NCBI GenBank assembly: GCA_002790835.1
Contig: PFVX01000022.1
Span: 4,308-68,307, forward strand
Source: a bacterium CG_4_9_14_3_um_filter_65_15
GTDB taxonomy: Bacteria > Krumholzibacteriota > Krumholzibacteriia > LZORAL124-64-63
DNA: 64,000 bases
Direction: 5' to 3'
A program made the position numbers and the translations under genes. Below, in pieces: positions 8,196-24,500 of this stretch (within the stretch, counting starts at the first letter, position 1; each line of letters begins with the position of its first letter). The notes beneath the pieces were generated by a model that was given only the letters and a program-made list of their open reading frames with translations, was not told the DNA's origin and made no database searches.

Positions 8196-8438
8196 TCATG
8201 ACCCGGGGGAATCGTCCACGGAGGACGAATCGACACCATTTAATCCAATTCCCATTCGACTGTCATCATTCAATTTATTGCGTCCCGTTTCATGCATCCC
8301 GTCGTCCTCGGCAAGCGGCAGCAGGGAAAGGCGTTCGCCGTGTTCGAAGTCGCCATCGACGAGGCGGGAGAAGAAAAACACCAGGCCGGATATGACCAGA
8401 GTCAGGCTGATGAACACGAGGGCGATTATGATGTCCAC
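8196..8438 (-). CDS. ccoS: cbb3 oxidase maturation protein CcoS/FixS
   Basis: GTG start after AAGGAGG, overlapping the ccoI stop. MDIIIALVFISLTLVISGLVFFFSRLVDGDFEH matches the FixS pattern. The ORF-track start at 8723 is too far upstream. Confidence 0.85.
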   Translation of the reverse strand: MDIIIALVFISLTLVISGLVFFFSRLVDGDFEHGERLSLLPLAEDDGMHETGRNKLNDDSRMGIGLNGVDSSSVDDSPGS

Positions 8439-10891
8439 GACAACCTCCTTCCCGCCAGACGCAGGGCGGTCAGGGAGACCACCGAGATCGAGCTGATCGG
8501 CATGATGATCGCCGCGACCACGGGGGTGACCAGGCCGGCCAGGCAGAGGCCCACCGCTCCCAGGTTGTACACGACCGCCAGGAGCAGGTTGTCCCGCACA
8601 ACTCGGCGCAGATCCTTGGCCGCGGCCAGGGAACGGCCGATGGCGTCGATGCCGTCGCCCAGGAAGTAGAAGTCGGCCTTGCCCGGCAGCACGGGCCGGT
8701 CGACCGCCGGCGTGGCGGCGCACAGGGCGGCGGCGAAGCTGGGGCTGTCGTTGAGGCCGTCGCCGACCATCAGGGTGTCCCGCTCATCAAGCCGGCGCAC
8801 GAGTTCGGCCTTGGCCTCCGGGGTGAGCCCACCCCAGGCGCAATCCTGGGGGATGCCCAGCTCGGCGGCCGCACGGTCGACCTTGTCCTGCCGGTCGCCG
8901 CTGAGCAGGAATATCCGGTAACCGGCCGCATGCAGGCGTTCCACCTCGTCCGGTGCGTCTTTCTTGAGGTCTTCCTGCAGGCTGAAGGCAGCGACGAGTG
9001 CGCCGTTGCAGGAAAACGCCGTGGTCCCCGAGGAAGCGATCGTTTCTTTTTCCCCGGGGCAGGCAAAATCGGGTTGGCCCAGGCGCCAGGTGTCGGCTTC
9101 GAGGATGAGTTCCAGGCCCGATCCGGGAATTTCGCGCAGGTCCTCGGCGGTGTTGGCGGAAAATCCGTTCGCCTCGCTCTCCGCCGCCCCTGCGGAGCGC
9201 AGCGCCCGGGCCAGGCACGCGCTGACCGGATGGTTGCTGCGCGAGGTCATGTGGAGCAGGACGCGCTGTTCCCGGGGGTCCAGATCCAGCAGCACGCTCC
9301 GGGATTGCGGCGCAAGGGCGAGGCGGTCCAGGGTGAGGGTCCCGGTCTTGTCCAGGAGGATCTTGCGCACCGCAAGGGCCTTTTCCAGGAAGGTCGGTTT
9401 GCGTAGGAAAACGCCGGCGCGACGCAGGGCTCCGTGGATCAGTTCTTCGGCCAGGGGGGTTGCCAGGCCGAGGGCGCAGGGGCAAGTGACTACCAGAATG
9501 GCGATGGTCACCTTGATGGCCTGGGTCGGATCCTGCGGGACCCAGATGGCGAACCCGGCTGCGGCGGCGGTCAGGACGGCTCCGACATACCAGCTGCTGA
9601 CTCGATGCCACCAGCGGGGGCGGAATTCCTCGTCGGCGACGGTGGTCGCGCTCAGCAGGTCCTGCAGGCGGCTGGTATCGAAATTCTCCATGGCTGTGGC
9701 TGAAAAACCGTGGGAGGAGGCGTTGAAGGCACCGGCGGGGATCCGGTCGCCCGGCAGGTAGTCCACGCGGGCGGATTCTCCCGTGATCCAGTCCATGCTC
9801 ACGGTGGTGCCCCGGCGCATGAGCATGGCCTCGGCCGGAACCAGGTCGCCGGGCGCGATCCACAGCTCATCGCCCTGATTCAAGCGGGGAGCGGCGACGG
9901 CCTCGAGATCGCCGTTGGCGGTCTTGCGCTTGACGGTCAGGTTCTCCGCCCCGGACGTGTCCAGCAAGCTGTTGCGGTTGCGTTCCAGGATGTGCTCCTG
10001 GGCCCAGCGACCCACCAGCATGAGGGCGATGAAAACGGTCAGGCTGTCGAAATACGCGTGGTCGGGACCGGCGGTCAAAAAGGCGTAAACCGATCCGGCG
10101 TAGGCCAGGACCATGCCCAGGGAAATGGGCACATCCAGGTGCAGGACACCGCGGCGCAGGCCGGCGGCCGCGCCTTTGAGGAACACGCCCCCACCGGCCA
10201 GCAGGCTCACCGTCGCCATGCCCAGGCTGAGCCAACCGAAGAAGTGATAGAGGTTTCCGTAGGCCAGGCCGAAATAGAAGCTCAGGCTGAACATCATGAC
10301 GTTCAGGGCCATGGAGATGGCGATGGCCATGCGCAGCAGGAGGCCGCGCGAGTGCCGGCGCACCCCGCGTGTGCTGGGGCCCAGCCGGTAACCGAAGCGT
10401 TCGATCTCGCCCAGAAAGGCCTTGAGGTCCCCCCGATCCGGGTCCCAGGCCAGTTCGACCTTACCCAGGGTGGGGTTGATGCGGATCATGACGCCGGCGT
10501 CCTGGCGGCGAAAGAGCTCTTCGATGAGCCACACGCAGGCCGCGCAGTGGACCCCCTGGATGTCCAGATCCAGGCGCAGAGGGCCGCTGCCCACGGTGAT
10601 CTCGGCTTCCCTTTCGGCCAGCAGTCGTTCGAGCCACCCGAAGCTGTCGGGTCGCAGGTCCACGGCCGGAGACGTCGTTTCGGGGGTGAGGTCGTAGTAG
10701 CGTTCGAGCTCGGCCTGGTGGATCAATTCGTACACACCGGCGCACCCGCGACAGCAGAAGGGGCCGTCCTCGGGTTTCCAGAAGCGGCCCAACGAATTCC
10801 CGCAATGCAGGCAATGGCCGATTTCGGCAGCGTGCCGATAATTCTCCGGCCAATCGTCGGGCAGGGGCATGTTAAATGTCGTAGCGGTCAT
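8426..10891 (-). CDS. ccoI: P1B-type copper-translocating ATPase CcoI/FixI
   Basis: N-terminal CLHC...FCCRGC, HMA motif GVHCAAC, TGES, CPC, DKTGTLT and MVGDGLND. Confidence 0.95.
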   Translation of the reverse strand: MTATTFNMPLPDDWPENYRHAAEIGHCLHCGNSLGRFWKPEDGPFCCRGCAGVYELIHQAELERYYDLTPETTSPAVDLRPDSFGWLERLLAEREAEITVGSGPLRLDLDIQGVHCAACVWLIEELFRRQDAGVMIRINPTLGKVELAWDPDRGDLKAFLGEIERFGYRLGPSTRGVRRHSRGLLLRMAIAISMALNVMMFSLSFYFGLAYGNLYHFFGWLSLGMATVSLLAGGGVFLKGAAAGLRRGVLHLDVPISLGMVLAYAGSVYAFLTAGPDHAYFDSLTVFIALMLVGRWAQEHILERNRNSLLDTSGAENLTVKRKTANGDLEAVAAPRLNQGDELWIAPGDLVPAEAMLMRRGTTVSMDWITGESARVDYLPGDRIPAGAFNASSHGFSATAMENFDTSRLQDLLSATTVADEEFRPRWWHRVSSWYVGAVLTAAAAGFAIWVPQDPTQAIKVTIAILVVTCPCALGLATPLAEELIHGALRRAGVFLRKPTFLEKALAVRKILLDKTGTLTLDRLALAPQSRSVLLDLDPREQRVLLHMTSRSNHPVSACLARALRSAGAAESEANGFSANTAEDLREIPGSGLELILEADTWRLGQPDFACPGEKETIASSGTTAFSCNGALVAAFSLQEDLKKDAPDEVERLHAAGYRIFLLSGDRQDKVDRAAAELGIPQDCAWGGLTPEAKAELVRRLDERDTLMVGDGLNDSPSFAAALCAATPAVDRPVLPGKADFYFLGDGIDAIGRSLAAAKDLRRVVRDNLLLAVVYNLGAVGLCLAGLVTPVVAAIIMPISSISVVSLTALRLAGRRLSWTS

Positions 10892-10978
10892 GGATTATCC
10901 CGGTTGGTAGCCGAAAACCGTGCGAAACATAGAGAGAATTTGTCCGGTAGTCAACCTAGCGAAACACTAGGAATTTCC

Positions 10979-11734
10979 TCAAAAGACGGGCCAAAATCCC
11001 CATTTGATCCCGGCCACGATTCCGAACATCTTGCCGGACCGCAAGAGGAATTCGATCCCGACAAATATCACCAGCAACGATGCCACCAGATTGAATTTCC
11101 GCTGCAGGGCCGGCGCCAGGCGTCCGGCCCCCAGGCCGATGGCCACCAGGACGGGCATGGTCCCCAGGCCGAAGGCTACCATGGTTCCCGCGCCATGGAG
11201 AGGCGTGGGTGCGGTGAGGGCCGCAATGGCCATGGCGTAGACGGGGCCGCAGGGCAAAAATCCGTTGGCCACGCCGAGAAAGTAGCGACCGGCCAGGCTG
11301 GATGTGCCCACCAGTCCCATGAATTTTTCCCCGGTGAACCTCCCCAGGCGACTGCTTTCGATGATGCGGCCGGTGGGCACCCAACCGCGCAGACCCATGC
11401 CCATGACGACCATCAGGGCTCCGGCGATCAGGAACAGCGTTCCCCGCACGGTGTTGGAGGGCCCGGTGGCCTGGGCGGCGGTGGCCAGCAGTCCAAAGGC
11501 CACGCCGATGACGGCGTAGGCGTTGAGGCGGCCGAAATGGTAGATCAACAGGGCCGGCAAGAGGGCGCGCAGGCGGCCGTCGTGGCGGCCTTGGGCGAGG
11601 CTGAAGGTGCTGACCAGCGGGCCGCACATTCCGATGCAGTGGCCCAGGCTGGTGGTCAAACCGATCCCCATGGCGGCCCAGATGGTCAGGGCTGCCACAT
11701 GGATGTCGGAAGCGCTTCCGCAACAGCTTTCCAT
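10979..11734 (-). CDS. DsbD_2/TauE-like membrane protein (cbb3 assembly)
   Basis: HCIGMCGP, GFLPCGPVY and FGLGT motifs. Start reassigned to MESCCGS, which follows an AGGAG RBS. Confidence 0.88.
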   Translation of the reverse strand: MESCCGSASDIHVAALTIWAAMGIGLTTSLGHCIGMCGPLVSTFSLAQGRHDGRLRALLPALLIYHFGRLNAYAVIGVAFGLLATAAQATGPSNTVRGTLFLIAGALMVVMGMGLRGWVPTGRIIESSRLGRFTGEKFMGLVGTSSLAGRYFLGVANGFLPCGPVYAMAIAALTAPTPLHGAGTMVAFGLGTMPVLVAIGLGAGRLAPALQRKFNLVASLLVIFVGIEFLLRSGKMFGIVAGIKWGFWPVF

Positions 11735-11862
11735 GACGTCTCCTGGTGGGGGTCCCCCCATACTATGCTGCGGGCGTCGGCGGGGCAACGCGATTGACGG
11801 TTTCCGGCGATCCGGTCGAGATTGCGTCAAACCCTCGTCCTCAAGGACCGTGCTGAAGGAGA

Positions 11863-12135
11863 ATGATGACCTGGCGCCAGGAATCCTCCCCCACCATGCG
11901 CTTCTGGAATCTCATCAAGGCCTTTGAGGATCGGGCGGGGTATGGCATTCTCATCAACACGAGTTTCAACGTGCGGGGCGAACCGATCGTCTGCACACCC
12001 CGGGATGCCTACCGTTGCTTCATGCGCACGGATATGGATGTGCTGGTCCTGGAAAACCTGGTCCTGGAAAAAGGGGATCAACCCGACTCCGACCCGCTGG
12101 AAGCGGCCGCCGCCGGGGTCTTCCCCTTGGATTGA
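11863..12135 (+). pseudogene. C-terminal fragment of a NodU/CmcH-family O-carbamoyltransferase
   Basis: LINTSFNVRGEPIVCTPRDAYRCFMRTDMDVLVL is the conserved C-terminus of a normally ~550-600 aa enzyme; only ~90 aa are present. Confidence 0.8.
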
Positions 12136-12150
12136 AGCGAATGGCTGAAC

Positions 12151-12315
12151 ATGTCTTACCTGCGGCACCTCGATCGCCTGCTCCGGGAAGTCTGGAGCGT
12201 CGCCCGCGCCAACCGCGCGTGGTGGATGGTGCCGCTGGAGTTGGTCCTGCTCGTGCCCGCGGCCCTCATCAATTCGGGGCAGGTCGCCGCACCCTTCATC
12301 TATACGCTTTTTTGA
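12151..12315 (+). CDS. DUF5989/SxtK-like small membrane protein (54 aa; not in ORF track)
   Basis: MSYLRHLDRLLREVWSVARANRAWWMVPLELVLLVPAALINSGQVAAPFIYTLF*. The WWxxP...APFIYTLF signature is typical of this family, which usually follows carbamoyltransferase genes. Confidence 0.8.
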   Translation: MSYLRHLDRLLREVWSVARANRAWWMVPLELVLLVPAALINSGQVAAPFIYTLF

Positions 12316-13415
12316 TCCTGTGCTGCGCGGGCCTGGCCGCCCCGGCCGGCGGGCAGGAGGCTGCGCCCCACCGGGCACCGCACGTGCCCTGGCTGGAGGA
12401 CGCCCCGTGGGCCGAGGTCCTGAAGCAGGCCCGCGAGGTTTCCCTGCCCATCCTGATCGATTTCCACGCTTCCTGGTGCGGCCCGTGCAAGGCCCTGGAT
12501 GCCATGGTCTACAACGAGGCCGAGGTGATCCGGGAATTGGCTGACGTGCTGACCCTCAAGGTGGATGTGGACCGCCCCGATGCCGAGGCCCTGGAAAAGG
12601 AATTCGGGGTCACCCGTTTGCCGACCCTGATTTATTGCGACTCCGAGGGGCAGCGCTGGGGAAGCTTTACGGGCTTCGTTTCCGCCGATACGTTTCTGGC
12701 TCGGGTTCGGCAGTGGAAGCGATCGTTGAGCGGTGAACGGGAATTCCTGGCCCGGTTGGAGACCGCCCCGGATGATCCGGTGATCCTGATGGAAGCCTTC
12801 AACCGGAGCAAAGGGGCGGGACGTTCCGCCGAAGCGGCGGGATTTCGGGAACGGCTGTTGACGCTGACGCGTCCGGACCGGCGGCACGAAGCGGCCCGGC
12901 AGCTGGTCATCATCGCGACCAACGAATTTTTGAGCGGATCTGCGGATGAAGCGCAGGATCTGATCCGCCGGACCGAAACCATGTTCCCCGCCGATGGCCA
13001 GGATCTGGGCCGCGACCTTCGGCTGCGCGACCTGGAATCCCTGGCAAACCTCACCGGGTTGCAGGAGCAGCTGCCCGATACCCTCGGCCTCCTGGAAACC
13101 TATTCCCACATGATCAAACTGGATCGCGGATACGTGCCGGCCCTGGAGGGTTTTGCCCGCACCGCCCTGGCCGGGGGAATCCGCCTGCCGCAGGCTACGA
13201 CCTGCGCCCTGCGGGCGGTGATCCGCAGCGACAACCGCCCCGATCTGCTGGCCTTGCTTGCGGCGTGCTATCAGCGACGGAGTTTTCATGCCCGCGCGGT
13301 CAAGTGGATGGAAAAGGCGGTGGCCGCCGCGCCCGACAACCTGGAGTTCCACGACAGGCTGGGGCTCTACCGGTCGACCTGCCCGCCCTGGATGCGGCCC
13401 CCTGATCACAACTAG
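12312..13415 (+). CDS. Periplasmic thioredoxin-family protein with a helical/TPR-like C-terminus
   Basis: Signal-like N-terminus, ILIDFHASWCGPCKAL, cis-Pro loop RLPT, and a TPR-like tail. Probable TTG start overlapping the upstream TGA; the ORF-track start at 12015 is unlikely. Confidence 0.85.
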   Translation: MILCCAGLAAPAGGQEAAPHRAPHVPWLEDAPWAEVLKQAREVSLPILIDFHASWCGPCKALDAMVYNEAEVIRELADVLTLKVDVDRPDAEALEKEFGVTRLPTLIYCDSEGQRWGSFTGFVSADTFLARVRQWKRSLSGEREFLARLETAPDDPVILMEAFNRSKGAGRSAEAAGFRERLLTLTRPDRRHEAARQLVIIATNEFLSGSADEAQDLIRRTETMFPADGQDLGRDLRLRDLESLANLTGLQEQLPDTLGLLETYSHMIKLDRGYVPALEGFARTALAGGIRLPQATTCALRAVIRSDNRPDLLALLAACYQRRSFHARAVKWMEKAVAAAPDNLEFHDRLGLYRSTCPPWMRPPDHN

Positions 13416-13429
13416 AGATTTCTTTAACC

Positions 13430-13546
13430 CATAAAGAGGACCGGCCTCGTATAACGAAGCCGGTCCAACGGCATGTCGGTGGGGGATTGGAGGGAGATAC
13501 CGACAAGCCGCGTGCTCAAAAAAAGGATTGTTTTTCCACCCCGACA
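13430..13546 (-). ncRNA. Candidate independently transcribed small RNA
   Basis: Own sigma-70 promoter, an internal hairpin with a C-rich loop and a terminator hairpin plus U-tract. It lies between convergent genes, after the RND operon terminator. Ends are approximate. Confidence 0.6.
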
Positions 13547-13551
13547 GAGAA

Positions 13552-13580
13552 ATAGTAGAGGATTGAGAGGCGGATGGCAA
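13552..13580 (-). promoter_or_regulatory. Sigma-70 promoter of the candidate sRNA
   Basis: TTGCCA-N17-TACTAT on the minus strand, with a very AT-rich upstream tract (13581-13670). Confidence 0.7.
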
Positions 13581-13771
13581 TGATAAAAAAGGGATAAACG
13601 AAATTAATTGAGATATAAACGGGATAAAATCTATATGAATAAGGCATTAAAAATATTAAAAAGTTAAAAAACAGCCATCCATCCGGGTTGTTGATTTCGA
13701 ATATAGATGCGGTTTAATTGTTGAATTCCAACTGGTTGAGTGGGATATATTCCGGGCCCCTGATCGGGGTC

Positions 13772-13804
13772 AAAAAAACCTGGGAGGGTCGGCGTCCTCC
13801 CAGG
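13772..13804 (-). terminator. Rho-independent terminator of the RND operon
   Basis: Minus strand reads CCTGGGAGG-loop-CCTCCCAGG followed by TTTTTTT, about 40 bp after the RND stop. Confidence 0.85.
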
Positions 13805-13842
13805 AAAAAACCCCATAAAAATTAAGGAAAACCCCAATACAT

Positions 13843-16800
13843 CTATCGCTTGTACAGATAATACGCCAGGGGGATGACCACCACCGTCAGGACCGTCGAC
13901 AGGAGCGAACCCATCATGAGGCTGATGGCCAGCCCCTGGAAGATGGGGTCGAACACCATGACGAACGAACCGGTCACCACCGTGCCGGCGGTCAGGGCGA
14001 TGGGCAGGAAGCGCACGGCCCCCGATTCGATGACCGCGTCCTGCAGGTCCAGCCCGTCATTCAGGCGCGCCTCGATGAAATCGATGAGCAGGACGCTGTT
14101 GCGCACCATGATGCCCGCCAGCGCGATCACCCCGATCATGGAGGTGGCGGTGAAGAAGGCGCCGAACATCAGGTGTCCGGGGATGATGCCCACCAGCGTC
14201 AGGGGGATCGGGATCATCATCAGCAGGGGCACGGTGAAGTTCTGGAACATGCCCACGATCAGCAGGTAGATGATCACCAGCACCACGGCGAAGCTGATGC
14301 CAAGGTCGCGGAACACCTCGTAGGTGATGTGCCACTCCCCGTCCCACTTCATGGCGTACTCGTCCTCGGTCTGCGGTTGGACGGTGTTGAACTTCTTGAT
14401 GTGGGTGCCGTCGGGCATGATCAGCTTGTCGATCTTCTTGTTCATGTCCAGGATGCCGTAGACGGGCGATTCCAGCTCCCCGGCCACGTCGGCGGTCACG
14501 TAGATCACCGACTTGAGGTCCTTGCGGTGGAGGCTCTTCTGGTTGACGTCCGTTTCCACCTTGATCACGTCCGACAGGGGAATCAGGGCGCCCGCGCGGC
14601 TGCCGATGTAGAGGTCGCCGAAGCTCTGGGGGTCGGAACGGTCGGCCAGGGGCAGGCGCACGTTGATGGGCACCGGCTCGGCCGCCGCGTCCATGTGGAC
14701 CAGGCCCTGGTCATAGCCGTTGAGCGCCACGCCGAGGGTCATGGCCACCTGCTGGGTGCTGACGCCGCGCACGGCGGCCCGATCGGTATCCACGGCCAGG
14801 CGGTACCGGGTCTGGTCGCCCTCGACGAACCAGTCCACGTCGACCACGCCGGGGGTGGAGTTGAACACTTCCTTGATCTTGCGGGCGGCTTCGAGACGGC
14901 CCGCGAAAGTGGGTCCGTAGACCTCGGCCACCAGGGTCGACAACACCGGCGGTCCCGGCGGCACCTCGACGATCTTGACCGCGGCGCCGAAAGGGGCCGC
15001 CAGTTCGTCGATGGGGCCGCGCACCCGCTTGGCCAGGGCGTGGCTCTTGTCGCTGCGCTTGGCCTTGTCCACCAGGTTCACCTGGATGTCGGCCACGTTG
15101 GGCCCCTGGCGCAGGAAGTAGTGCCGCACCAGACCGGAGAAATTCACGGGAGCGGCCACGCCGGAATAGATCTGGTAGTCGGTCACTTCCGGCACGGTGG
15201 ACAGGTAGTCGCCGACCTCCCGGGCCAGCTGGGTCGTGGTCTCCAGGGTGGTCCCTTCGGGGGTGTCGATGATGACCTGGAATTCGCTCTTGTTGTCGAA
15301 GGGCAGCATCTTGACCTGCACGGTGCGGGTCACGAACAGGATCGTCGAGGCCCCCGTCAGCACGGCGACCACCAGGAGCGCCATGATCCCGCGCCGGGGG
15401 TTTGCCACGAGCGGGCGTACCAGCCGGTTGTAGACCTGGTAGATCTTGGTCTGCTGCAGACTGTAGCTGTCGGCTCCCCCGCCTTCGATGGTGCCGTCGC
15501 CCACCATGTCGTCGTGCCAGTGCTGTCGAGGTTTGAGCAGGCGCAGCGCCAGCCAGGGCGAGATGGTCAGGGCCACGAAGAGGCTGAAGACCATGGCCAG
15601 CGACGCACCGACGGGCATGGGTCGCATGTAGGGTCCCATCAATCCGCGTACGAAGGCCATGGGCATCATGGACGCGATCACCGTCAAGGTTGCCATGATG
15701 GTGGGGTTGCCGACCTCGCGAATGGCGCCCAGGGCGATCTTCAGGCTGCGCTCCCCGGCCATCTGGAAATGACGGTGCATGTTCTCGACGATGATGATCG
15801 TGGCGTCGATGACGATGCCGGTCACCAGGATCAGCGCGAACAGCGTCACCCGGTTCAGGGTGTAACCCTGGATGTAGTACACGAACAGGGTCAGCGAAAA
15901 GGTGGTGGGGATGGACAGGAAGATGATGGTCGCCCCCCGCCAGCCCATGGCGAAGAACACCACGATCACCGCCAGGAAGATGGCCAGGGCCAGGTTGCTG
16001 ATCAGGCTGGATGCCTTGTCCTGGGCCGTTGCGCCGTAGTTGCGGGTCACGGTCACGTTGACGTCGTCGGGCAGCAGCCGCGGTCGCAGGGTCTCGATCT
16101 TCTCCAGCACGGCCTCGGCCACGCGGGTGGCGTCACTGCCCTTGCGCTTGGCCAGGGTGATGGTCACGGCGGGGTGCTCCGAACCCACGGCGTAGGCGTC
16201 GGTATCGATGCCCTGCTGGACCGCGGCCGGGCCCAGGCCCAGGAAGGTGTAGTTGTCGATCTCTCCCGGCCCGTCGGTCACCGTCGCAATGTCCATCAGG
16301 CGCACGGGTCGCTCGCCGAAACTGCCCACCACCAGGTTGGCCACGTCGCCGGCCGAGCGCAGGAACATGCCCGTCTCCACCAGGAATTGCCGGTTGCCGG
16401 TGGCGAACCCGCCCGAGGGCAGGTTCTGGTTCTGCATCTGCAGGGACGGCAGGATGGACAGGGTGGTCAGGTTGAAGGCCGCCATGCGCTGGGGGTCCAG
16501 CTGCACCTGCACGGTGCGTGGCCGGCCGCCGATGATCTCGCTCACCGAAACATCGGGGATGTCCATCACTTCGTTGCGCAGGACTCCGGCCAGCTGGCGC
16601 AGGCCGTAGCCGTCGTATTCGTCGCTCCACAGGGTCACCGCCATCATGGGCACGTCGTCGATGCTGCGGACCTTGATCAGGGGCGGCGTGATGTTCGGGG
16701 GCCACATGTCGGCGTTGCCGTACATCTTGTTGGCGATACGGGTCAGGGCCTTTTCCTGGTCGGTGCCGACGAGGAAGCGCGCCGTCACCAGGGAGAAGCT

Positions 16801-17118
16801 GGGGTAGCTGGAAGAGTAGACGTACTCGACGCCCTCGATCCCCCAGACCTTCTGTTCCATGGGCCGGGTGACGATGTTCTCGACTTCCTGGGGACTGGCG
16901 CCCGGCATCATCACCAGGATGTCGATCATGGGCACGACGATCTGCGGTTCCTCCTCGCGCGGGGTCAGCGAGAGGGAGAACAGGCCCAGCAACAGGATCG
17001 CGATGATGAGCAGCGGCGTGATCTTCGAATTGATGAAGACCCTGGCCAGGTTGGCGGCGAAGCCCAGGTTCAGCTTCGTCTCGGGCAACTCGGGCAGGGG
17101 ATTCTGGCGCTGGTCCAT
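13843..17118 (-). CDS. RND efflux permease (AcrB/CusA superfamily; sulfur-associated 'PREEEPQI' clade)
   Basis: 1091 aa with 12-TM RND architecture; TPREEEPQIVVP, GIVIDATII and GIMVRNSVLLIDF. Confidence 0.93.
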   Translation of the reverse strand: MDQRQNPLPELPETKLNLGFAANLARVFINSKITPLLIIAILLLGLFSLSLTPREEEPQIVVPMIDILVMMPGASPQEVENIVTRPMEQKVWGIEGVEYVYSSSYPSFSLVTARFLVGTDQEKALTRIANKMYGNADMWPPNITPPLIKVRSIDDVPMMAVTLWSDEYDGYGLRQLAGVLRNEVMDIPDVSVSEIIGGRPRTVQVQLDPQRMAAFNLTTLSILPSLQMQNQNLPSGGFATGNRQFLVETGMFLRSAGDVANLVVGSFGERPVRLMDIATVTDGPGEIDNYTFLGLGPAAVQQGIDTDAYAVGSEHPAVTITLAKRKGSDATRVAEAVLEKIETLRPRLLPDDVNVTVTRNYGATAQDKASSLISNLALAIFLAVIVVFFAMGWRGATIIFLSIPTTFSLTLFVYYIQGYTLNRVTLFALILVTGIVIDATIIIVENMHRHFQMAGERSLKIALGAIREVGNPTIMATLTVIASMMPMAFVRGLMGPYMRPMPVGASLAMVFSLFVALTISPWLALRLLKPRQHWHDDMVGDGTIEGGGADSYSLQQTKIYQVYNRLVRPLVANPRRGIMALLVVAVLTGASTILFVTRTVQVKMLPFDNKSEFQVIIDTPEGTTLETTTQLAREVGDYLSTVPEVTDYQIYSGVAAPVNFSGLVRHYFLRQGPNVADIQVNLVDKAKRSDKSHALAKRVRGPIDELAAPFGAAVKIVEVPPGPPVLSTLVAEVYGPTFAGRLEAARKIKEVFNSTPGVVDVDWFVEGDQTRYRLAVDTDRAAVRGVSTQQVAMTLGVALNGYDQGLVHMDAAAEPVPINVRLPLADRSDPQSFGDLYIGSRAGALIPLSDVIKVETDVNQKSLHRKDLKSVIYVTADVAGELESPVYGILDMNKKIDKLIMPDGTHIKKFNTVQPQTEDEYAMKWDGEWHITYEVFRDLGISFAVVLVIIYLLIVGMFQNFTVPLLMMIPIPLTLVGIIPGHLMFGAFFTATSMIGVIALAGIMVRNSVLLIDFIEARLNDGLDLQDAVIESGAVRFLPIALTAGTVVTGSFVMVFDPIFQGLAISLMMGSLLSTVLTVVVIPLAYYLYKR

Positions 17119-17119
17119 G

Positions 17120-18217
17120 TTACTTCACCACCTTGTCGCCCTCGGCCAGGGGCTGCTGGCTCGATAGCACCACGGTCTCGCCGCCGGCCAGGCCGGAAAG
17201 GGCTTCGGTCCGGTCACCGTGCGGGCGACCCAGGCGGATCCAACGCAGGTGGGCGGTCCCATCGTCGCGGACCAGCCACACGCCCGTCAGCTGACCCCGG
17301 CGGATGATGGAAGTGGAAGGCACCAGGACCTTCGACGCCGCGGGTCCGTGCAGGACGACCCGGGCGAACATGCCGCTGCGGAGCCTGCCGTCGGTGTTGT
17401 CCAGGGCGGCCTCGATGTCGTAGGTGCGGCTGCCGGGGTTGGCGGTGGGGACGATCTTGGTGATTTCCGCCTGGTAGACGGCTCGGTCCAGGGAGGTGAC
17501 GTCGATCCGCACGGGATCGCCGATCCTCAGGCTGGAGATGTCCTTCTCGCCCACATGGGCCACGACCTTCATGCGCGCGGTATCCTCGAGGATCAGCAGG
17601 GGCATGCCGGGGTTGGCCATGTCGCCCGCCTCGATCATCTTGCGGCCCACGACACCGTCGACCGGAGCGACGATGTCCACGTAGCCGAGGTGCACGTTGA
17701 CCTCACGCAGCCCGGCCTTGGCCATCTCCAGGCCGGCGGCGGCGCGGTCGCGTCCGGTCAGGACGTCGTCGAGCTGCTGGCGGGAGACGGCTTTCGCGGC
17801 GTACAGGTTCTCGAAGCGCTCGGCCATCTTCTCGGCGTTGGCCAGGACGGCCTTCGCCTCGGAAATGCCCGCCTCGGCCTGGGCTTTCTTGGCCATCAGG
17901 TCGGTATCGTCGATGCTCAGCAGAGGAGCGCCCTTGCGGACCGGTTGGCCCTCGGCGATGTGGATCTTCTTGACCCAGCCCATCATCCGCGTGGAGATCG
18001 TGATCGAGGTCTCGGCCTCGAGGCTGCCCACGGCGATCATATCCCGCGGGACTTCCTCGCGCTGGACGCCGGCGGTCTCGCAGCTGACGGTTTTCGGCTC
18101 CGGGGCGTTGGTCTCGGAGCTTTTCGTGCATCCGCTCAGCAGGGTCAGGACCGTGCCGGTCAGCACGGTCGCTGCGGCCAGTTTTCCCCCGAGGGTATTG
18201 CGGCGTGTCGTTGCCAT
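17120..18217 (-). CDS. RND periplasmic adaptor (MFP), lipoprotein
   Basis: Lipobox LSGC, lipoyl-hairpin-lipoyl organisation, IVAPVDGVV and LRSGMFARV. Confidence 0.92.
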   Translation of the reverse strand: MATTRRNTLGGKLAAATVLTGTVLTLLSGCTKSSETNAPEPKTVSCETAGVQREEVPRDMIAVGSLEAETSITISTRMMGWVKKIHIAEGQPVRKGAPLLSIDDTDLMAKKAQAEAGISEAKAVLANAEKMAERFENLYAAKAVSRQQLDDVLTGRDRAAAGLEMAKAGLREVNVHLGYVDIVAPVDGVVGRKMIEAGDMANPGMPLLILEDTARMKVVAHVGEKDISSLRIGDPVRIDVTSLDRAVYQAEITKIVPTANPGSRTYDIEAALDNTDGRLRSGMFARVVLHGPAASKVLVPSTSIIRRGQLTGVWLVRDDGTAHLRWIRLGRPHGDRTEALSGLAGGETVVLSSQQPLAEGDKVVK

Positions 18218-18236
18218 GAAGGAGAGCCTCCTGGAG

Positions 18237-19688
18237 TTAGCGATCCTGTTCGGGGTTCGCGTTCGAGTCCCGGCGGTCGAGCACGTCGGCGCCGACGGGG
18301 ACCGCAGCCATGTATTCGAGTCGGGCCAGGCCGACCTGGTAGTCGTGCAGGGCCTGGACGAGGTTGCCTTCGGCCATGTTGGCCGCCGCCTGGGTATCCA
18401 GAAGGTCGACCATGCTGACCAGACCTTCGCGATACTGGTTGGTGACGATGCGCAGCCCCTCGCGGGCGGAAGTCACCGCCTCACGCGCCACCGCCACCTT
18501 GTCGTGGGCGGCGGCGAGGTTGAGCCAGGCCTCGGTGGCCTGGACGCCGGCCTGGCGGGTTTCGAAATCGGCCATGTATCGGGCCGCCCGTTCCTGGGCG
18601 CGCGCCTTCTTCAACGCGCTGATGTTCTGCAGCCCCTTGAAGACATCCCAGGTGGCGTACACCCCGAGGGTCCAACTGTCGGCGTCGTTTCCGAAGATCT
18701 TGTCCTGGCTGTAGTAGTCCTTCTGCACGCCGAGATTCACGTGCGGGAGCATGGCCCCGCGGGCGACGCCAACCATCTTGCCTGCGGCATCGGCCTGCTT
18801 CCGCCGGGCGGCGATGTCCGCGCGGCTTCGGGAGCCGGCGGGATCGAACTGCGCCGGGGGTGGGGTCACGGGTTCGACTTCCAGATCCCGGGCCACAGCC
18901 AGGGGGAGGTCGGTGTCCACGGCCGTCAGGAGCTTGATGTATTGCCCGGCCACCGCGACCATGTTCTGGACCTCGATGAACCGCTGCTGCAGGCCGCTGA
19001 GATAGACCTTGGCCTGGAGCAGGTCGGCCTCGGTCGCCATCTCGTTGTCCACCATGGACTGGGCTTGGCCCACGTGCCCCTCGGCCGAAGCCACCGCGGC
19101 CTTCATCACGCGTTCGTAAGCCTGGGCCAGGGCCAGCCCTTCGTAGGCCTCGATCGCCTTCAAGGCCACGGTCTGTCCGGCACGCTGGTGGTCGAGGGAG
19201 GCGGCGTCGCTGGCGGCGTTGGCCGCCTGCTTGCCGAACAACCCCATGCCGCCGTTGAAAAGCGGCTGCAGCAACTGCAGGCGCGTGATGCGTTGATTGG
19301 TCTCGCCGGGATAATTCAGCCCCACGGGGCCGAAGTCGGTCTGCGGGTTGACCGCGCGGTTCTGCAGGCGGAAACCGAAGCTGCTGAGGGCGTCGTCGCT
19401 GCGCAAGAAGAACTCGCCCAGTTGCATTTGGGGCAGGAAGCCCCGCCAGGCGCCCTGGGCGTCGGCGGCGGCGGCATCCTGCATGGCCTGCGAGGCGGCG
19501 AGCATCTCGTTGCCCTGGCGGGCCGACAGCAGGATCTTGCCTCGATCCACGAAGAGGGTGTCGTCGTGCACGACGCCGATCCGGGTAACGTCATTGGCCG
19601 CGGTGGCGGTGTTCTCGGCGGCGCTGCCGTTGACGGGGACCACCGCCGGGATCAGAAGCATGAGGATTCCGATTCCTTTGCGAATCAT
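18237..19688 (-). CDS. TolC-family outer-membrane efflux protein
   Basis: Signal peptide, two OEP repeats (QPLFNGG; YREGLVSMVDLLD); upstream of the MFP and RND genes. Confidence 0.9.
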   Translation of the reverse strand: MIRKGIGILMLLIPAVVPVNGSAAENTATAANDVTRIGVVHDDTLFVDRGKILLSARQGNEMLAASQAMQDAAAADAQGAWRGFLPQMQLGEFFLRSDDALSSFGFRLQNRAVNPQTDFGPVGLNYPGETNQRITRLQLLQPLFNGGMGLFGKQAANAASDAASLDHQRAGQTVALKAIEAYEGLALAQAYERVMKAAVASAEGHVGQAQSMVDNEMATEADLLQAKVYLSGLQQRFIEVQNMVAVAGQYIKLLTAVDTDLPLAVARDLEVEPVTPPPAQFDPAGSRSRADIAARRKQADAAGKMVGVARGAMLPHVNLGVQKDYYSQDKIFGNDADSWTLGVYATWDVFKGLQNISALKKARAQERAARYMADFETRQAGVQATEAWLNLAAAHDKVAVAREAVTSAREGLRIVTNQYREGLVSMVDLLDTQAAANMAEGNLVQALHDYQVGLARLEYMAAVPVGADVLDRRDSNANPEQDR

Positions 19689-20145: not shown

Positions 20146-21087
20146 ATGTCCGCGCCACCGCAACGAGAGCTTTTGATCGCCCGACCTCGCGGGTTTTGCG
20201 CCGGGGTCGATCGCGCCATCGCCGTGGTCAATCTTCTGCTGGAACAGAACGGCGCACCGCTGCATGTGCGGCGGGAGATCGTGCACAACAAGTCCGTGGT
20301 CGAGGATTTCCGGGCGCGAGGCGTGGTTTTCGTGGATGAACTGGGCGAGGTGCCCGACGGCCAGGTGGTCGTGTTCAGCGCCCATGGCGTGTCACCGGCC
20401 GTGCGGGAGGACGCCGATCGGCGCGGCCTGCGGGTCGTGGATGCCACGTGCCCGCTGGTGACCAAGGTCCACCAGGAGATCGTCAAGCACGCCGCCGAGG
20501 GTTATCGGTTGATTCTCATCGGGCACGCGGGCCACGACGAGGTTCTGGGGACCATGGGCGAAGCGCCGGATCGCATCACCCTGGTGACGAGCGTGGCGGA
20601 TGTGGCCGCACTGGATTTTCCCGCCGGAACGCCGCTGGCCTACGCCACGCAGACCACTTTGAGCGTCGATGAAACGCACGACATCGTGGCCGCTCTCAAG
20701 GCCCGTTACCCCGATCTGCACGAACCCCGGCGCAGCGATATCTGCTACGCGACCCAGAATCGGCAGGATGCCGTCAAGGCGCTGGTTCAGGCGGGCGTTC
20801 AGCATCTGCTGGTGGTGGGCTCGCGGACCAGCAGCAACAGCCGGCGCCTGTGCGAGGTGGCCGAGAATCTGGGGGCATCGGCTTCCCTCATCGACAGCAG
20901 CGAGGACATCGACCCCGGCCGCCTGAGCTCCGTCGCGGTCCTGGGCTTGACTGCCGGAGCCTCGGCGCCCGAACACCTGGTTCAGAATGTCGTGGTTCAT
21001 TTGCGCCGGGAAGGCTGGAATCCGCGGGAATTGGTGACCCTGGAAGAAAATGTCGCCTTCAGCCTACCTAGTGAGTTGATTGGATGA
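20146..21087 (+). CDS. ispH: 4-hydroxy-3-methylbut-2-enyl diphosphate reductase
   Basis: PRGFCAGV, IVHN, SAHG, DATCPLV, DICYATQNRQ, SSNS and TAGASAP. Confidence 0.97.
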   Translation: MSAPPQRELLIARPRGFCAGVDRAIAVVNLLLEQNGAPLHVRREIVHNKSVVEDFRARGVVFVDELGEVPDGQVVVFSAHGVSPAVREDADRRGLRVVDATCPLVTKVHQEIVKHAAEGYRLILIGHAGHDEVLGTMGEAPDRITLVTSVADVAALDFPAGTPLAYATQTTLSVDETHDIVAALKARYPDLHEPRRSDICYATQNRQDAVKALVQAGVQHLLVVGSRTSSNSRRLCEVAENLGASASLIDSSEDIDPGRLSSVAVLGLTAGASAPEHLVQNVVVHLRREGWNPRELVTLEENVAFSLPSELIG

Positions 21088-21581: not shown

Positions 21582-24500
21582 TTACGGCAGCAGGGTTTTT
21601 GCCAGACGATCCACCAGCAGGTGGATCGTCTGCGTATCGGGCCTCAGGGGGGCGGGCCAGCTCTGCGAATCGGTCGTCAGTTTCCGGATGACGTCGTCCG
21701 GTCCCGGCGGGACGTCATCCACGATGTATCCTGCCTGTCGCAGGTCGGATTCCAGTTCATTCACCTTGGCCTGCTGGAGGCGCTTGACCTTCTTCTCCCG
21801 CAACCCCGCGATCAATTCCTTGCCGCTGCCGCAGACCTTTTCCCGGAATTCCTGGATCTGCGGCAGCAATCCGGAACTCCCCAGGACGCTCTCCTGCAGG
21901 ATCTGCGGCGTTATCCGCGGGGGGCGGCCACGCCGCCACAGGGGAAGGAACTGGTGCCAGAGCTTGACCACGGCGTCGAGACGCTCGGTTTCGGCGGGAG
22001 TGACGGTGCCGCCTTCGGCCAGTTGCACCTTGGCCTGGCGCCAGCGGCCCACTGTCGAGACGCCCGCGGTCAACAGGCGGTGCAGCAGGGGCAAGTCCCC
22101 ACTCAACAGATAGAACAGGTGGAGGGCTTCGGGTTCGTCGAATAGCCCAGGTTGCGGAACCTGGAGCGCCGCGGCGTAGGCGGCGCCGTCCATGCCCGCC
22201 GGGTCGGGGGGCAACAGGTCCGCTCGCCGTTCCTCGGACCAGACGGACAGGATGTCCGGGGGCGTCGCGGCGGCGGTTTTTCGCACCTCGGCCAGGTCGA
22301 CGACATGGGGGGGATCCAGGTTTTCCCGGGCGAGAATCTTCCGCCAGGCGTCCACCTCGCTGGGACGGGCGCAGATGGAGATGATCTGCAGGCCTTTTTC
22401 CCTGGCGATCCGTCCCAGGCCGACCACGGCGGCGGCGAAGCGTTCGGGGTCGCTGGTGGTCAAGGCGTCGTCCAGGAACAGAGGGGGATGGTCTGGAATG
22501 TTCTGCGCCGCCAGGAAACCCATGCGGACCGCCAGCAACAGCTGGGTTCGCGTGCCGGTGGAAAGTCGCGCGAGGTCCAGGTCGAGCCGGGTGTCGGGGT
22601 CGTGCACCACGAAGGTGGATTGTCCGTCCGCCAGGGGAGAGCAGGCCAGCGTGTAGGGCAGGCCGGTGATGAGATCCAGGAGATCCTCGGCGCGGTCCAG
22701 GGCGTCCGGTCGCGTCGTGTTGCTGTATTCCCTGGAGACTTCATCCAGGAGAAGGCAACCCAGGCCGTCCTCCAGCCGGGTGCGCCAGGTAGCGGCGAGA
22801 TTCCCCTCGAGGCGGGCCTCGTCGGCCAGGGCGGATTCCAGATCATGGCCCTGGGACGCGGCCTCGAGTTCTGCGCTCAGGGCGCCGATGCTCGTGTTGA
22901 TTTCGTCGGCCCGTGCGGCGAGATCCTCCTCCTGAAGCAGGCGTTCGGCAATTGCGCCGGGTTCCCATTGCCGGGGGTCGTCGTCGGGAAAGAAGCGGTC
23001 CAACGCGGCGAGTCCACGGTCGAGCTGCTGGAGTCGGCCTTCGGTCTCCTTGATGCGGTCGACCAGGTCATGATGGCGGCTTCCGGCCCGTTGCAGTTGT
23101 TCCAGATCGCGACGATTCCGGTGGTCGGCATCCAGCTCGAGGGAGCGGAACAGTTCCTCGTCATCCTGCTCGTACCGTTGGCCCAGGCGCTCCAGGCGGT
23201 CGCACTCCAGCCGGGCGGCCGCCAGATCCTGGCCGAGCTGCGCCCGGTCGGACCACTCCCGGTCCAGGCGGACCAGGGCCCCGCGCGCGGCTTCGCCGTC
23301 GTCCACCGTGGGCCGGCCCAGGCGGACCAGAAGAGTGTTGACCGCATCCCGAACCAGGTCCCGTTGTTGCCGGGCGGCGGCTTCCGCGCTGCGGGCCTTG
23401 GCCAGGCGGCGCCGTTCATCCTGGGCGTTTCGCACGCGGTCCAGCACGAGGAACCCATCGGCATCTTCCAGGTCCAGGGAGACGCCGTGGGCCTGCAAAA
23501 GATCGGTCAGGCGGGAGCGGGCTTGGTCCCGCTTCAACTCGGCGTCCCGCAGACGCAGCTCGTGTTCGGCGCCCGTAACGGGAGATCCCCGCCGGGTGGC
23601 CACCAGGATGATGCCGCCGGCCAACCCCAGGGCGCATACGACGCCGCCCCAGAGGCGGAGGTCCGGCGCCAGGAACATCAGCGCCAGGCCGATCAGGGCC
23701 GTCATGGCCGGGGCGATCCCCAGCACCCACGTTCGCTGCGGAGCGCCGGCTGGTGCATGGTCCCCCAGGTCACGCAGACCATCGGCAATGGCGCGCCGGT
23801 CCCGGTACTTCTCCCAGGCGTCCTGGATGCGACGCACGGTGTCCGCATCGAGATCGCCGGCCACGCTGTCGGAGTCGGAAAGACCGGAGGTGGACTCCGC
23901 GCCGGACCATTCGGCCACGGTGCGACGAGCCTGGTCCAGACGGGCTTCCGCCTCCTTCAGTTCCGTGATGCGGCCCTCCAGCTCCGCCCGGTCCCCGGCC
24001 TGGTCCGGGGCGGAGGTCGGTGGGTCGGCCGGAAGTTTGCCCTGCAGATCATCACAGCGGGACCGCGCGTTTTCCAGCTCCGCGCGGACGTTCTGCAGGT
24101 CCTGCCGCCGCTGGTCGAACAAGTCGAGATCCTGGGCGCCCATCCTGGCCGCGCCGGGGGCCAGGGCCCCGAGTTCGCTGCGCAGATCCTCCAGTTCCCG
24201 TTCCAGATCCCGGCGGTCGCGGAGGGCCGCCAGGAGATCCCGGCGTTCCCGCGCCAGACGGGCTTGCCCGCTGTCCCGTTCGAGATTCTTCAGTTTGCGG
24301 CGATCCTGATCCAGGGCCTCCTGGCGGCTGGTGATCGTCCGGACCCGGCGCCGAGCCTCCTCCAGGTCGCGTTTCAGGACCCGGATACTCAGCCCCGAAG
24401 TCGTGAAAAGGGAATCCCGCAGGCCGGCGGTATCGAGCCCACCGGCCAAATCCACCGTCAGCCGCCGGGCGAGGTCGGCGTCGTCGCCGTCCAGATGGGT

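Follow-up and report, generated by a model that had tools for sequence, protein, structure and literature searches.

A probable family-specific small RNA gene with a near-invariant C-rich loop in Krumholzibacteriia

We analysed a stretch of 64,000 nucleotides (the window) from contig PFVX01000022.1 of the genome CG_4_9_14_3_um_filter_65_15, a bacterium of the phylum Krumholzibacteriota, class Krumholzibacteriia, and found that positions 13545..13431 of its minus strand are very probably a real small RNA (sRNA) gene. Judged from its sequence and from those of its relatives, the unit is predicted to be independent from promoter to terminator, non-coding, uncatalogued and specific to one family of the class, and its loop appears to be the only strongly constrained part of the hairpin. 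Conservation, covariation and a conserved promoter make it more than a chance arrangement. The explanation that we favour as a whole, a family-specific sRNA gene with a loop that pairs in trans, we hold with a probability of about 0.55. To our knowledge, no member of the phylum has been cultured.

A predicted sRNA gene conserved within one family

A preliminary description of the window had listed a 427-bp gap, an AT-rich tract, the promoter-like TTGCCA-N17-TACTAT, a UGUCGGU/ACCGACA stem, its loop and a terminator, and all of these were found on the minus strand where it had placed them. The gap (13416..13842) separates two convergent genes and holds the minus-strand unit, which is predicted to yield a transcript of ~115 nt (13431..13545), the sum of the minus-strand parts described here. 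The -35 box TTGCCA (13575..13580) and the -10 box TACTAT (13552..13557), separated by an N17 spacer, make up the sole sigma-70-like site (13580..13552) found in 12800..14400, and relatives carry TTGCnn at the same relative place. Upstream of the promoter lies an AT-rich, UP-like tract (13581..13670) with a GC content of 0.28-0.33, compared to 0.6-0.7 in the flanking genes; T-rich runs immediately 5' of the -35 box were also present in the nearer relatives. Since the usual spacing from the -10 box to the start is ~7 nt, transcription is predicted to begin near G13545, and would then run through a variable 5' leader of ~34 nt (13512..13545), which has a U-run at its end and a sequence that is unconserved beyond the genus. 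The leader is followed by hairpin P1 (13468..13511), whose outer helix, GCGGC/GCCGU with one bulged U on each side, and inner helix, UGUCGGU/ACCGACA, were recovered in the minimum free energy and centroid folds and in the RNAalifold consensus. All three folds left unpaired an 18-nt loop, AUCUCCCUCCAAUCCCCC (13481..13498), which we presume to be the functional site. Its layout, CUCCCUCC-AAU-CCCCC, comprises two C-blocks, with CCUCC inside CUCCCUCC in addition to the run of five C. An intrinsic terminator hairpin of 13 pairs, GGACCGGCUUCG-UUAUA-CGAGGCCGGUCC (13438..13466), ends before the U-rich tail UCUUUAU (13431..13437).

We searched for the promoter pattern TTGnnn-N16-18-TAnnnT up to 162 nt upstream of the core in relatives, and detected it in 60 of 62 distinct loci, compared to 5 in an equally long downstream stretch and 8 in the reverse complement. 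In most loci the -10 match ended 30-65 nt ahead of the core (8-90 nt overall), and RNA length in the relatives should therefore be roughly 100-150 nt. A look-up of RNA runs for positions 13000-14500 of the window returned none. A T-rich run follows the terminator stem on the sRNA strand in most of the aligned homologues, but not in every one (locus L072, for example, has GCTTCCCGG; L, G and C numbers are our own labels for loci, genomes and contigs).

The element is present as a single copy in its own genome (3.39 Mb in 94 contigs, 95% complete). BLAST with a 276-nt query against 60 related genomes matched a core of ~80 nt, consisting of the hairpin and the terminator, in 32 of the 36 genomes of the same family (E <= 0.001, identity 75-96%), and no match with E below 0.05 was obtained in the 24 that belong to other families of the class. 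Promoter and leader were matched by BLAST in the closest genome only. An ordinary intergenic region of 311 nt, taken from a different contig of the genome and used as a control query, gave one weak match in 60 family genomes and none within the genus. A search for homologues and their covariation had been proposed in the preliminary description, and proved positive: when 150 further genomes of the phylum were scanned with a covariance model (R1), 57 of the 60 that belong to the same family had a match and the three without one are 75-84% complete, and both helices covaried, as detailed below. Among the 90 genomes from eight other families, R1 matched in five, all weakly; G072, the one of these five that was inspected, carries the loop. 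A pattern made up of the inner stem and the loop matched 62 loci in a species-representative genome collection, one match each, and the titles that name a taxon give Candidatus Krumholzibacteriota or Krumholzibacteriia, except for a group labelled 'uncultured Fibrobacteraceae' and one labelled 'Gemmatimonadales'. One copy, in a genome of the window's genus (L027), is cut off at the contig end. A repeat or mobile element had been considered and was rejected, the element being single copy and syntenic.

Constancy of the loop was seen in several of these searches. The exact 16-mer CTCCCTCCAAWCCCCC, sought in 208 genomes of the phylum, occurred in 66 of 90 other genomes of the family, in 1 of 43 genomes of family f3 and in none of 74 elsewhere, and the reversed pattern had no match in the same 208 genomes. 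The loop was invariant or nearly so in the 29 loci found by BLAST. In some genera of the family the exact 16-mer is missing, but the RNA is kept with a variant loop, and such variants were seen in three genera only: a 1-nt deletion in genus g13 (CUCCCUCCAA-CCCCC), UUUCCCUCCAAAACCCC in genome G160, and a shortened loop in genome G013.

The minus-strand fold had a free energy of -50.1 kcal/mol (z -4.59), which none of 200 shuffles equalled; the plus-strand fold was poorer, at -45.9 kcal/mol (z -3.41, 1 of 200 shuffles as good). When 64 distinct 93-nt cores were aligned with MAFFT, the two-helix structure had 95.4% of its cells paired and compensatory changes in 15 of 24 pairs; none of 500 column shuffles reached any of five measures, and slid controls paired at 20-54%. 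RNAalifold independently gave the same helices, with 21 pairs, 13 of which showed compensatory changes. A larger alignment of 96 distinct sequences, including variants and metagenome copies, was 96.9% paired and showed compensatory changes in 20 of 24 pairs, with none of 500 shuffles as good, although being fitted to R1 it is biased towards the structure. In this alignment the changes fell in 5 of 5 pairs of the outer helix, 4 of 7 of the inner helix and 11 of 12 of the terminator.

The same data bear on strand and coding capacity. U-G pairs occurred at one position of the inner stem in 51 of the 64 sequences and at another in 10; these would be C-A on the opposite strand, and the strand is therefore minus. 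The terminator, as had been claimed, pairs fully on the minus strand only, since the plus-strand stem contains a C-A mismatch; on the plus strand, no T-run follows it either. An open-frame test was uninformative, as most frames are open in a GC-rich core of 93 nt, and the non-coding argument therefore rests on other features, namely 1-nt insertions and deletions within the conserved core of relatives and the compensatory changes in the helices. In addition, the AUG in the core is changed to ACG, AAG or UUG in relatives. The absence of a credible open reading frame (ORF), noted earlier from the window alone, is thus borne out by the comparison.

The C-rich loop, known RNAs and candidate targets

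No Rfam 15 family matched at its gathering score over the window. At E <= 10, the best sub-threshold match at the locus was a plant microRNA (E 0.24), with 6C not among the matches, and 18 homologues and paralogues gave none at E <= 0.1, in agreement with the initial view of the element as undescribed. The signal recognition particle (SRP) RNA and 6S RNA of the genome were located elsewhere (C53, 64.7 bits, and C94, 60.2 bits, respectively), and identity with either was ruled out. A literature search for the 16-mer of the loop returned no paper, and the 10-mer matches listed were to unrelated papers. A further search returned no paper on a small RNA of Krumholzibacteriota; the one paper to name both the phylum and small RNAs is a CsrA survey.

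In design, the sRNA resembles several known RNAs. In RsaE and RNAIII, initiation is prevented by UCCC motifs that are unpaired and bind Shine-Dalgarno sequences (PMC2790875), and the C-rich loops of 6C bind several messenger RNAs (mRNAs) without chaperones (PMC6486639). Cuckoo RNAs keep one anti-Shine-Dalgarno-like loop motif on freely varying stems, and consist of two to four adjacent hairpins, each with CCUCCUCCC in its loop (PMC4615179). Like the sRNA described here, the cuckoo RNAs of Alphaproteobacteria (CcsR, NfeR1 and others) present an anti-Shine-Dalgarno-like C-rich motif in a hairpin loop, and in both the loop is kept while stems vary, which is seen here in G072, G035:C448, G023:C2 and C5, L186, L187 and the long-stem metagenome loci described below. 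However, they belong to another phylum, show no sequence or covariance-model relation to our sRNA, and have several CCUCCUCCC hairpins, compared to a single hairpin with CUCCCUCCAAUCCCCC here, which places the latter outside their definition. The 6C RNA of Actinobacteria is likewise small and widely conserved in a lineage of high GC content, C-rich loops are its binding sites, and it works without a chaperone, a likeness given that Hfq was not found in the present genome; it differs in having more than one C-rich loop (termed L2 and L3 in that RNA), as against one 18-nt loop with two C-blocks. We take the C-rich loops of 6C to be two in number, and to be C-run loops. RsaE/RoxS and the UCCC-motif RNAs of Firmicutes (RNAIII, other Rsa RNAs and LhrC) also combine a 5' hairpin with a stable terminator, hold unpaired C-rich motifs in their most conserved part, and are proposed, as is our sRNA, to block the ribosome-binding site. 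They differ in lineage and sequence, no Rfam match to them was obtained here, and the targets of RsaE are proven. Unlike Csr/Rsm sponges, which have several GGA hairpin loops, the sRNA has one C-rich loop, and GGA occurs in it just once, at the base of the terminator. The sRNA is therefore similar in design to cuckoo, 6C and RsaE-type RNAs, yet is a new family, because the defining tests (covariance-model match, number of motif hairpins and motif sequence) fail.

We propose that a sigma-70-type promoter would drive transcription through the variable leader and the loop-bearing hairpin to the intrinsic terminator, where the transcript would end. The loop would serve as a seed and pair in trans with G-rich parts of mRNAs that are single-stranded; the foremost candidate sites are GGAGG-type Shine-Dalgarno regions and GGGGG runs. 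This pairing would block ribosome binding or alter mRNA stability. It would need no Hfq, and would rely on several G-C pairs, as in RsaE/RoxS, 6C and cuckoo/CcsR RNAs. The 3' end of the 16S ribosomal RNA of the genome is of the canonical CCUCC type (GGAUCACCUCCUUUCU), and GGAGG-type ribosome-binding sites are therefore to be expected. A search of the 95%-complete genome with PF17209 found no Hfq, other RNA chaperones not being searched for. Taken with the precedents of RsaE/RNAIII, 6C and cuckoo RNAs, these two observations favour chaperone-independent pairing with G-rich starts. We consider that the odds of the loop working through Hfq-independent pairing with G-rich or Shine-Dalgarno sites of mRNAs are even or slightly better. 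The comparative support for the sRNA is unusually good, and the mechanism appears plausible by analogy.

A number of results weigh against such pairing, or against the strength of its support. The invariance of the loop in loci L031-L092 and L189-L263 is partly by construction, as these were found with loop-containing patterns; independent support for loop constancy comes from the BLAST-found set and the covariance-model hits. Strict conservation of all 16-20 nt, including the spacer, exceeds what a short seed needs, and also fits recognition by a protein. When the 16-nt complement of the loop was sought with up to two mismatches in 61 family genomes, per-genome counts were similar to those of the reversed control, the sRNA gene apart. 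Within its own genome, near matches to the loop complement were confined to two sites. One of these (G000:C66:24335-24353, plus strand; L122:1336-1354) is complementary at 17 of 19 positions, with two mismatches (-35.9 kcal/mol), but it is intergenic, and the region is unconserved even within the genus, with one weak match in 60 family genomes. The other, on C69 (about 23645-23660; L123:846-861), complements the 3' half of the loop perfectly over 14 nt (-34.2 kcal/mol), and lies in a 3' untranslated region between the stop codon and a terminator hairpin; it could be a sponge site or chance, and it is possible that both matches are chance. As side observations on the C66 site, it follows by a few bases a sigma-54-like TGGAC-N7-TGCA motif, and the C-terminus of the gene upstream of it looks NtrC-like by reading of the sequence, not by a scan.

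Gene starts gave a similar result. Pairing with start regions had been put forward as a check on targets. In a duplex scan over 4185 starts, called by a rough heuristic of GC content at third codon positions and Shine-Dalgarno matches and not by a gene finder, the real loop formed 229 duplexes at <= -20 kcal/mol, compared to 127-243 for six shuffled C-rich loops, and was not set apart from them. The top hit (-29.2 kcal/mol) was the start of a beta-CASP metallo-hydrolase gene, identified by reading of the sequence, and none of 28 orthologous start regions retained the complementarity. The start regions of neighbouring genes paired weakly with the loop (-7.6 to -15.1 kcal/mol). For ribosomal RNA as a partner, the best duplex was -22.1 kcal/mol, which falls within the bulk of the genome-wide hits. 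The proposal of an undescribed trans-acting translational regulator thus held in its first part, the element being independent, non-coding and undescribed, whereas the scans lent no support to Shine-Dalgarno pairing, as no conserved site emerged and the real loop was not separated from shuffled loops.

In its present form the sRNA could enter RNA family databases, which would make for better annotation of these metagenome-assembled genomes. With it, another deep lineage joins a recurring design, in which a high-GC bacterium has an anti-Shine-Dalgarno-like C-rich loop and no Hfq, and this recurrence supports the view that the C-rich-loop design arose many times. The near-invariant 18-nt loop offers a precise handle for synthetic tests in a group that is not yet grown.

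The loop on other stems and rival explanations

The loop also occurs away from its usual hairpin. An identical loop is present in G072, of family f3, on the wholly different stem CCAGGGU/ACCCUGG and with its own terminator (G072:C206:617-703, L124), on a contig of 3.4 kb for which a binning error is possible. Genome G035 has a second copy (C448, L163) on the stem CCCGGGACC/GGUCCCGGG, and G023 has two extra copies on other stems, at C2 (L165/L137) and C5 (L166), of which the C5 copy has its own promoter, TTGAAT-N17-TACAAT, and terminator. In three genomes of genus g9 (L167, G014:C5; L168, G156:C17; L169, G158:C6), a long hairpin with the loop UAUCCCUCCAAACCCCCC was found 35-45 nt upstream of the gene for a 144-residue receiver-domain response regulator (Pfam Response_reg, E 9e-21), and this hairpin may be a cis-acting relative of the sRNA.

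Scanned with the loop alone, metagenome contigs yielded 75 loci, and with three loci from a viral collection (IMG/VR) the set came to 78. The canonical stem was present in 44 of the 78, and in one more the loop was one base shorter. Apart from the ten long-stem loci described next, some 15 loci were not canonical hairpins, at least nine of these being C-rich low-complexity sequence that does not fold into a hairpin. At ten metagenome loci (L196, L203, L206, L208, L213, L223, L224, L226, L227 and L255), the loop was carried on a long stem, GGCGCC...GGCGCC, that starts 9-10 nt after the -10 box, the sequence class being GGCGCCnGGCyGGG...CCCGGnCnGGCGCC. Eight of the ten, two of them on the same contig at a distance of 1.7 kb, came from a single assembly that has one canonical copy as well. 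GGAGG-N5-ATG follows 35-45 nt after the long-stem hairpin in L208, L223 and L224, where the gene begins MALKDFV or MALRDFV; the spacer in L208 and L224 contains GGGGAU or GUGGGGGAU, a stretch that complements the loop in its 3' half, in line with the pairing proposed above. All three viral-collection contigs contain the loop motif, and two of them, L186 and L187 (16.4 and 48.5 kb, filed as viral), have it in hairpins on other stems; L186 scored 48.4 bits with R1 and has its own terminator.

These copies may indicate that the loop is read by an RNA-binding protein, which the sRNA would titrate as a decoy, the same loop on 5' stems of mRNAs marking the targets of the protein, in a circuit that would resemble Csr but use a C-rich motif instead of GGA. 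Retention of all 16-20 nt of the loop, including the AAU spacer, while stems are fully replaced (G072, G035:C448, G023:C2 and C5, L186 and L187) agrees with this explanation, as do the placement of the loop at the 5' end of transcripts in the ten long-stem loci, eight of them in one assembly, and ahead of the receiver-domain gene in genus g9. The scans of family genomes, start regions and orthologs, in which no conserved complementary site was found, count in its favour too. However, no candidate protein was identified, known sponges offer several sites where this RNA has a single hairpin, and extra copies are rare: of the 208 genomes searched, just two, G023 (three copies) and G035 (two), have the exact loop more than once. 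Moreover, one loop on variable stems is a hallmark of base-pairing cuckoo RNAs as well (PMC4615179). We therefore regard a protein-binding decoy as rather improbable. A related idea, that the C-rich loop of 16-20 nt is a module dedicated to recognition by one partner (a protein or one particular RNA) and displayed on unrelated stems, so that the sRNA and mRNA 5' hairpins compete for it, appears to us more doubtful still. If true, such competition for a shared partner would amount to a titration circuit like Csr/Rsm, but based on a C-rich loop, in a phylum without a cultured member.

In contrast to an sRNA that pairs in trans, the element could be a cis-acting part of the RND efflux operon, such as a 3' untranslated region, a second terminator or a processing site. 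The gene next to it on the upstream side encodes an AcrB-type RND permease (13843..17118, minus; Pfam ACR_tran, E 2.7e-149), the stop codon of which bounds the gap, and which is the last gene of an OEP-HlyD-RND operon (13843..19688, minus). Among the 41 distinct loci with enough flank, 32 have an RND gene upstream on the same strand as the sRNA, and its open frame stops 86-137 nt before the sRNA core in the more distant genera, which speaks for a cis element. The operon has, however, its own strong terminator (13804..13779, followed by a run of seven T), and in 60 of 62 loci the promoter match intervenes between the RND gene and the core. In addition, a different gene lies upstream in 8 of the 41 loci, the one that was scanned (L012) being LytB/IspH, divergent from the sRNA, and the paralogues and the G072 copy occur in other contexts. 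The preliminary description had taken the unit to be independent of the RND operon, and this is supported by the separate terminator, the conserved promoter, and the presence of the sRNA without the operon in one genus. A cis role in efflux is hence very unlikely.

The order of hairpin and terminator is also the usual layout of an attenuator, and by reading of the sequence, ACCGGC, which lies in the terminator's 5' half, is a possible partner for GUCGGU in the 5' strand of P1. Yet an attenuator, leader or riboswitch would act on a downstream gene, and the next gene is convergent both in the window and in 23 of the 41 loci, where it is the thioredoxin-TPR gene; nor is there a conserved junction resembling a ligand pocket, the loop alone being conserved. 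We judge this explanation to be weaker again than that of an RND cis element. Least credible is a small protein gene, or a mere terminator of the convergent thioredoxin-TPR gene, for although a 43-residue ORF (13647..13516) and shorter ORFs overlap the region, and the terminator stands 22 nt past the plus-strand stop codon, the 43-residue ORF spans the promoter and leader and is unconserved in sequence, the core shows the indels, lost AUG and compensatory rather than codon-like changes described above, and the plus-strand stem has the mismatch and lacks a T-run.

Genes around the sRNA

The gap is bounded on its other side by the stop codon of the thioredoxin-TPR gene (12015..13415, plus). Just past the RND operon, and divergent from it, lies a LytB/IspH gene (20146..21087, plus). 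Genus g2 lacks the RND operon, and there LytB stands directly beside the sRNA; the wider order is therefore LytB, the RND operon if present, the sRNA and the thioredoxin-TPR gene. This arrangement suggests that the RND operon was either gained or lost between two fixed neighbours, LytB and the sRNA, the sRNA being kept at loci without it. Beside the thioredoxin-TPR gene, positions 8426..12378 (minus) of the window encode a P-type ATPase, whose N-terminal part is a cation-ATPase metal-binding domain, as well as a DsbD_2 membrane protein and a 183-residue ORF without a Pfam match, and together with the thioredoxin-TPR gene this group looks like a metal and redox maturation cluster.

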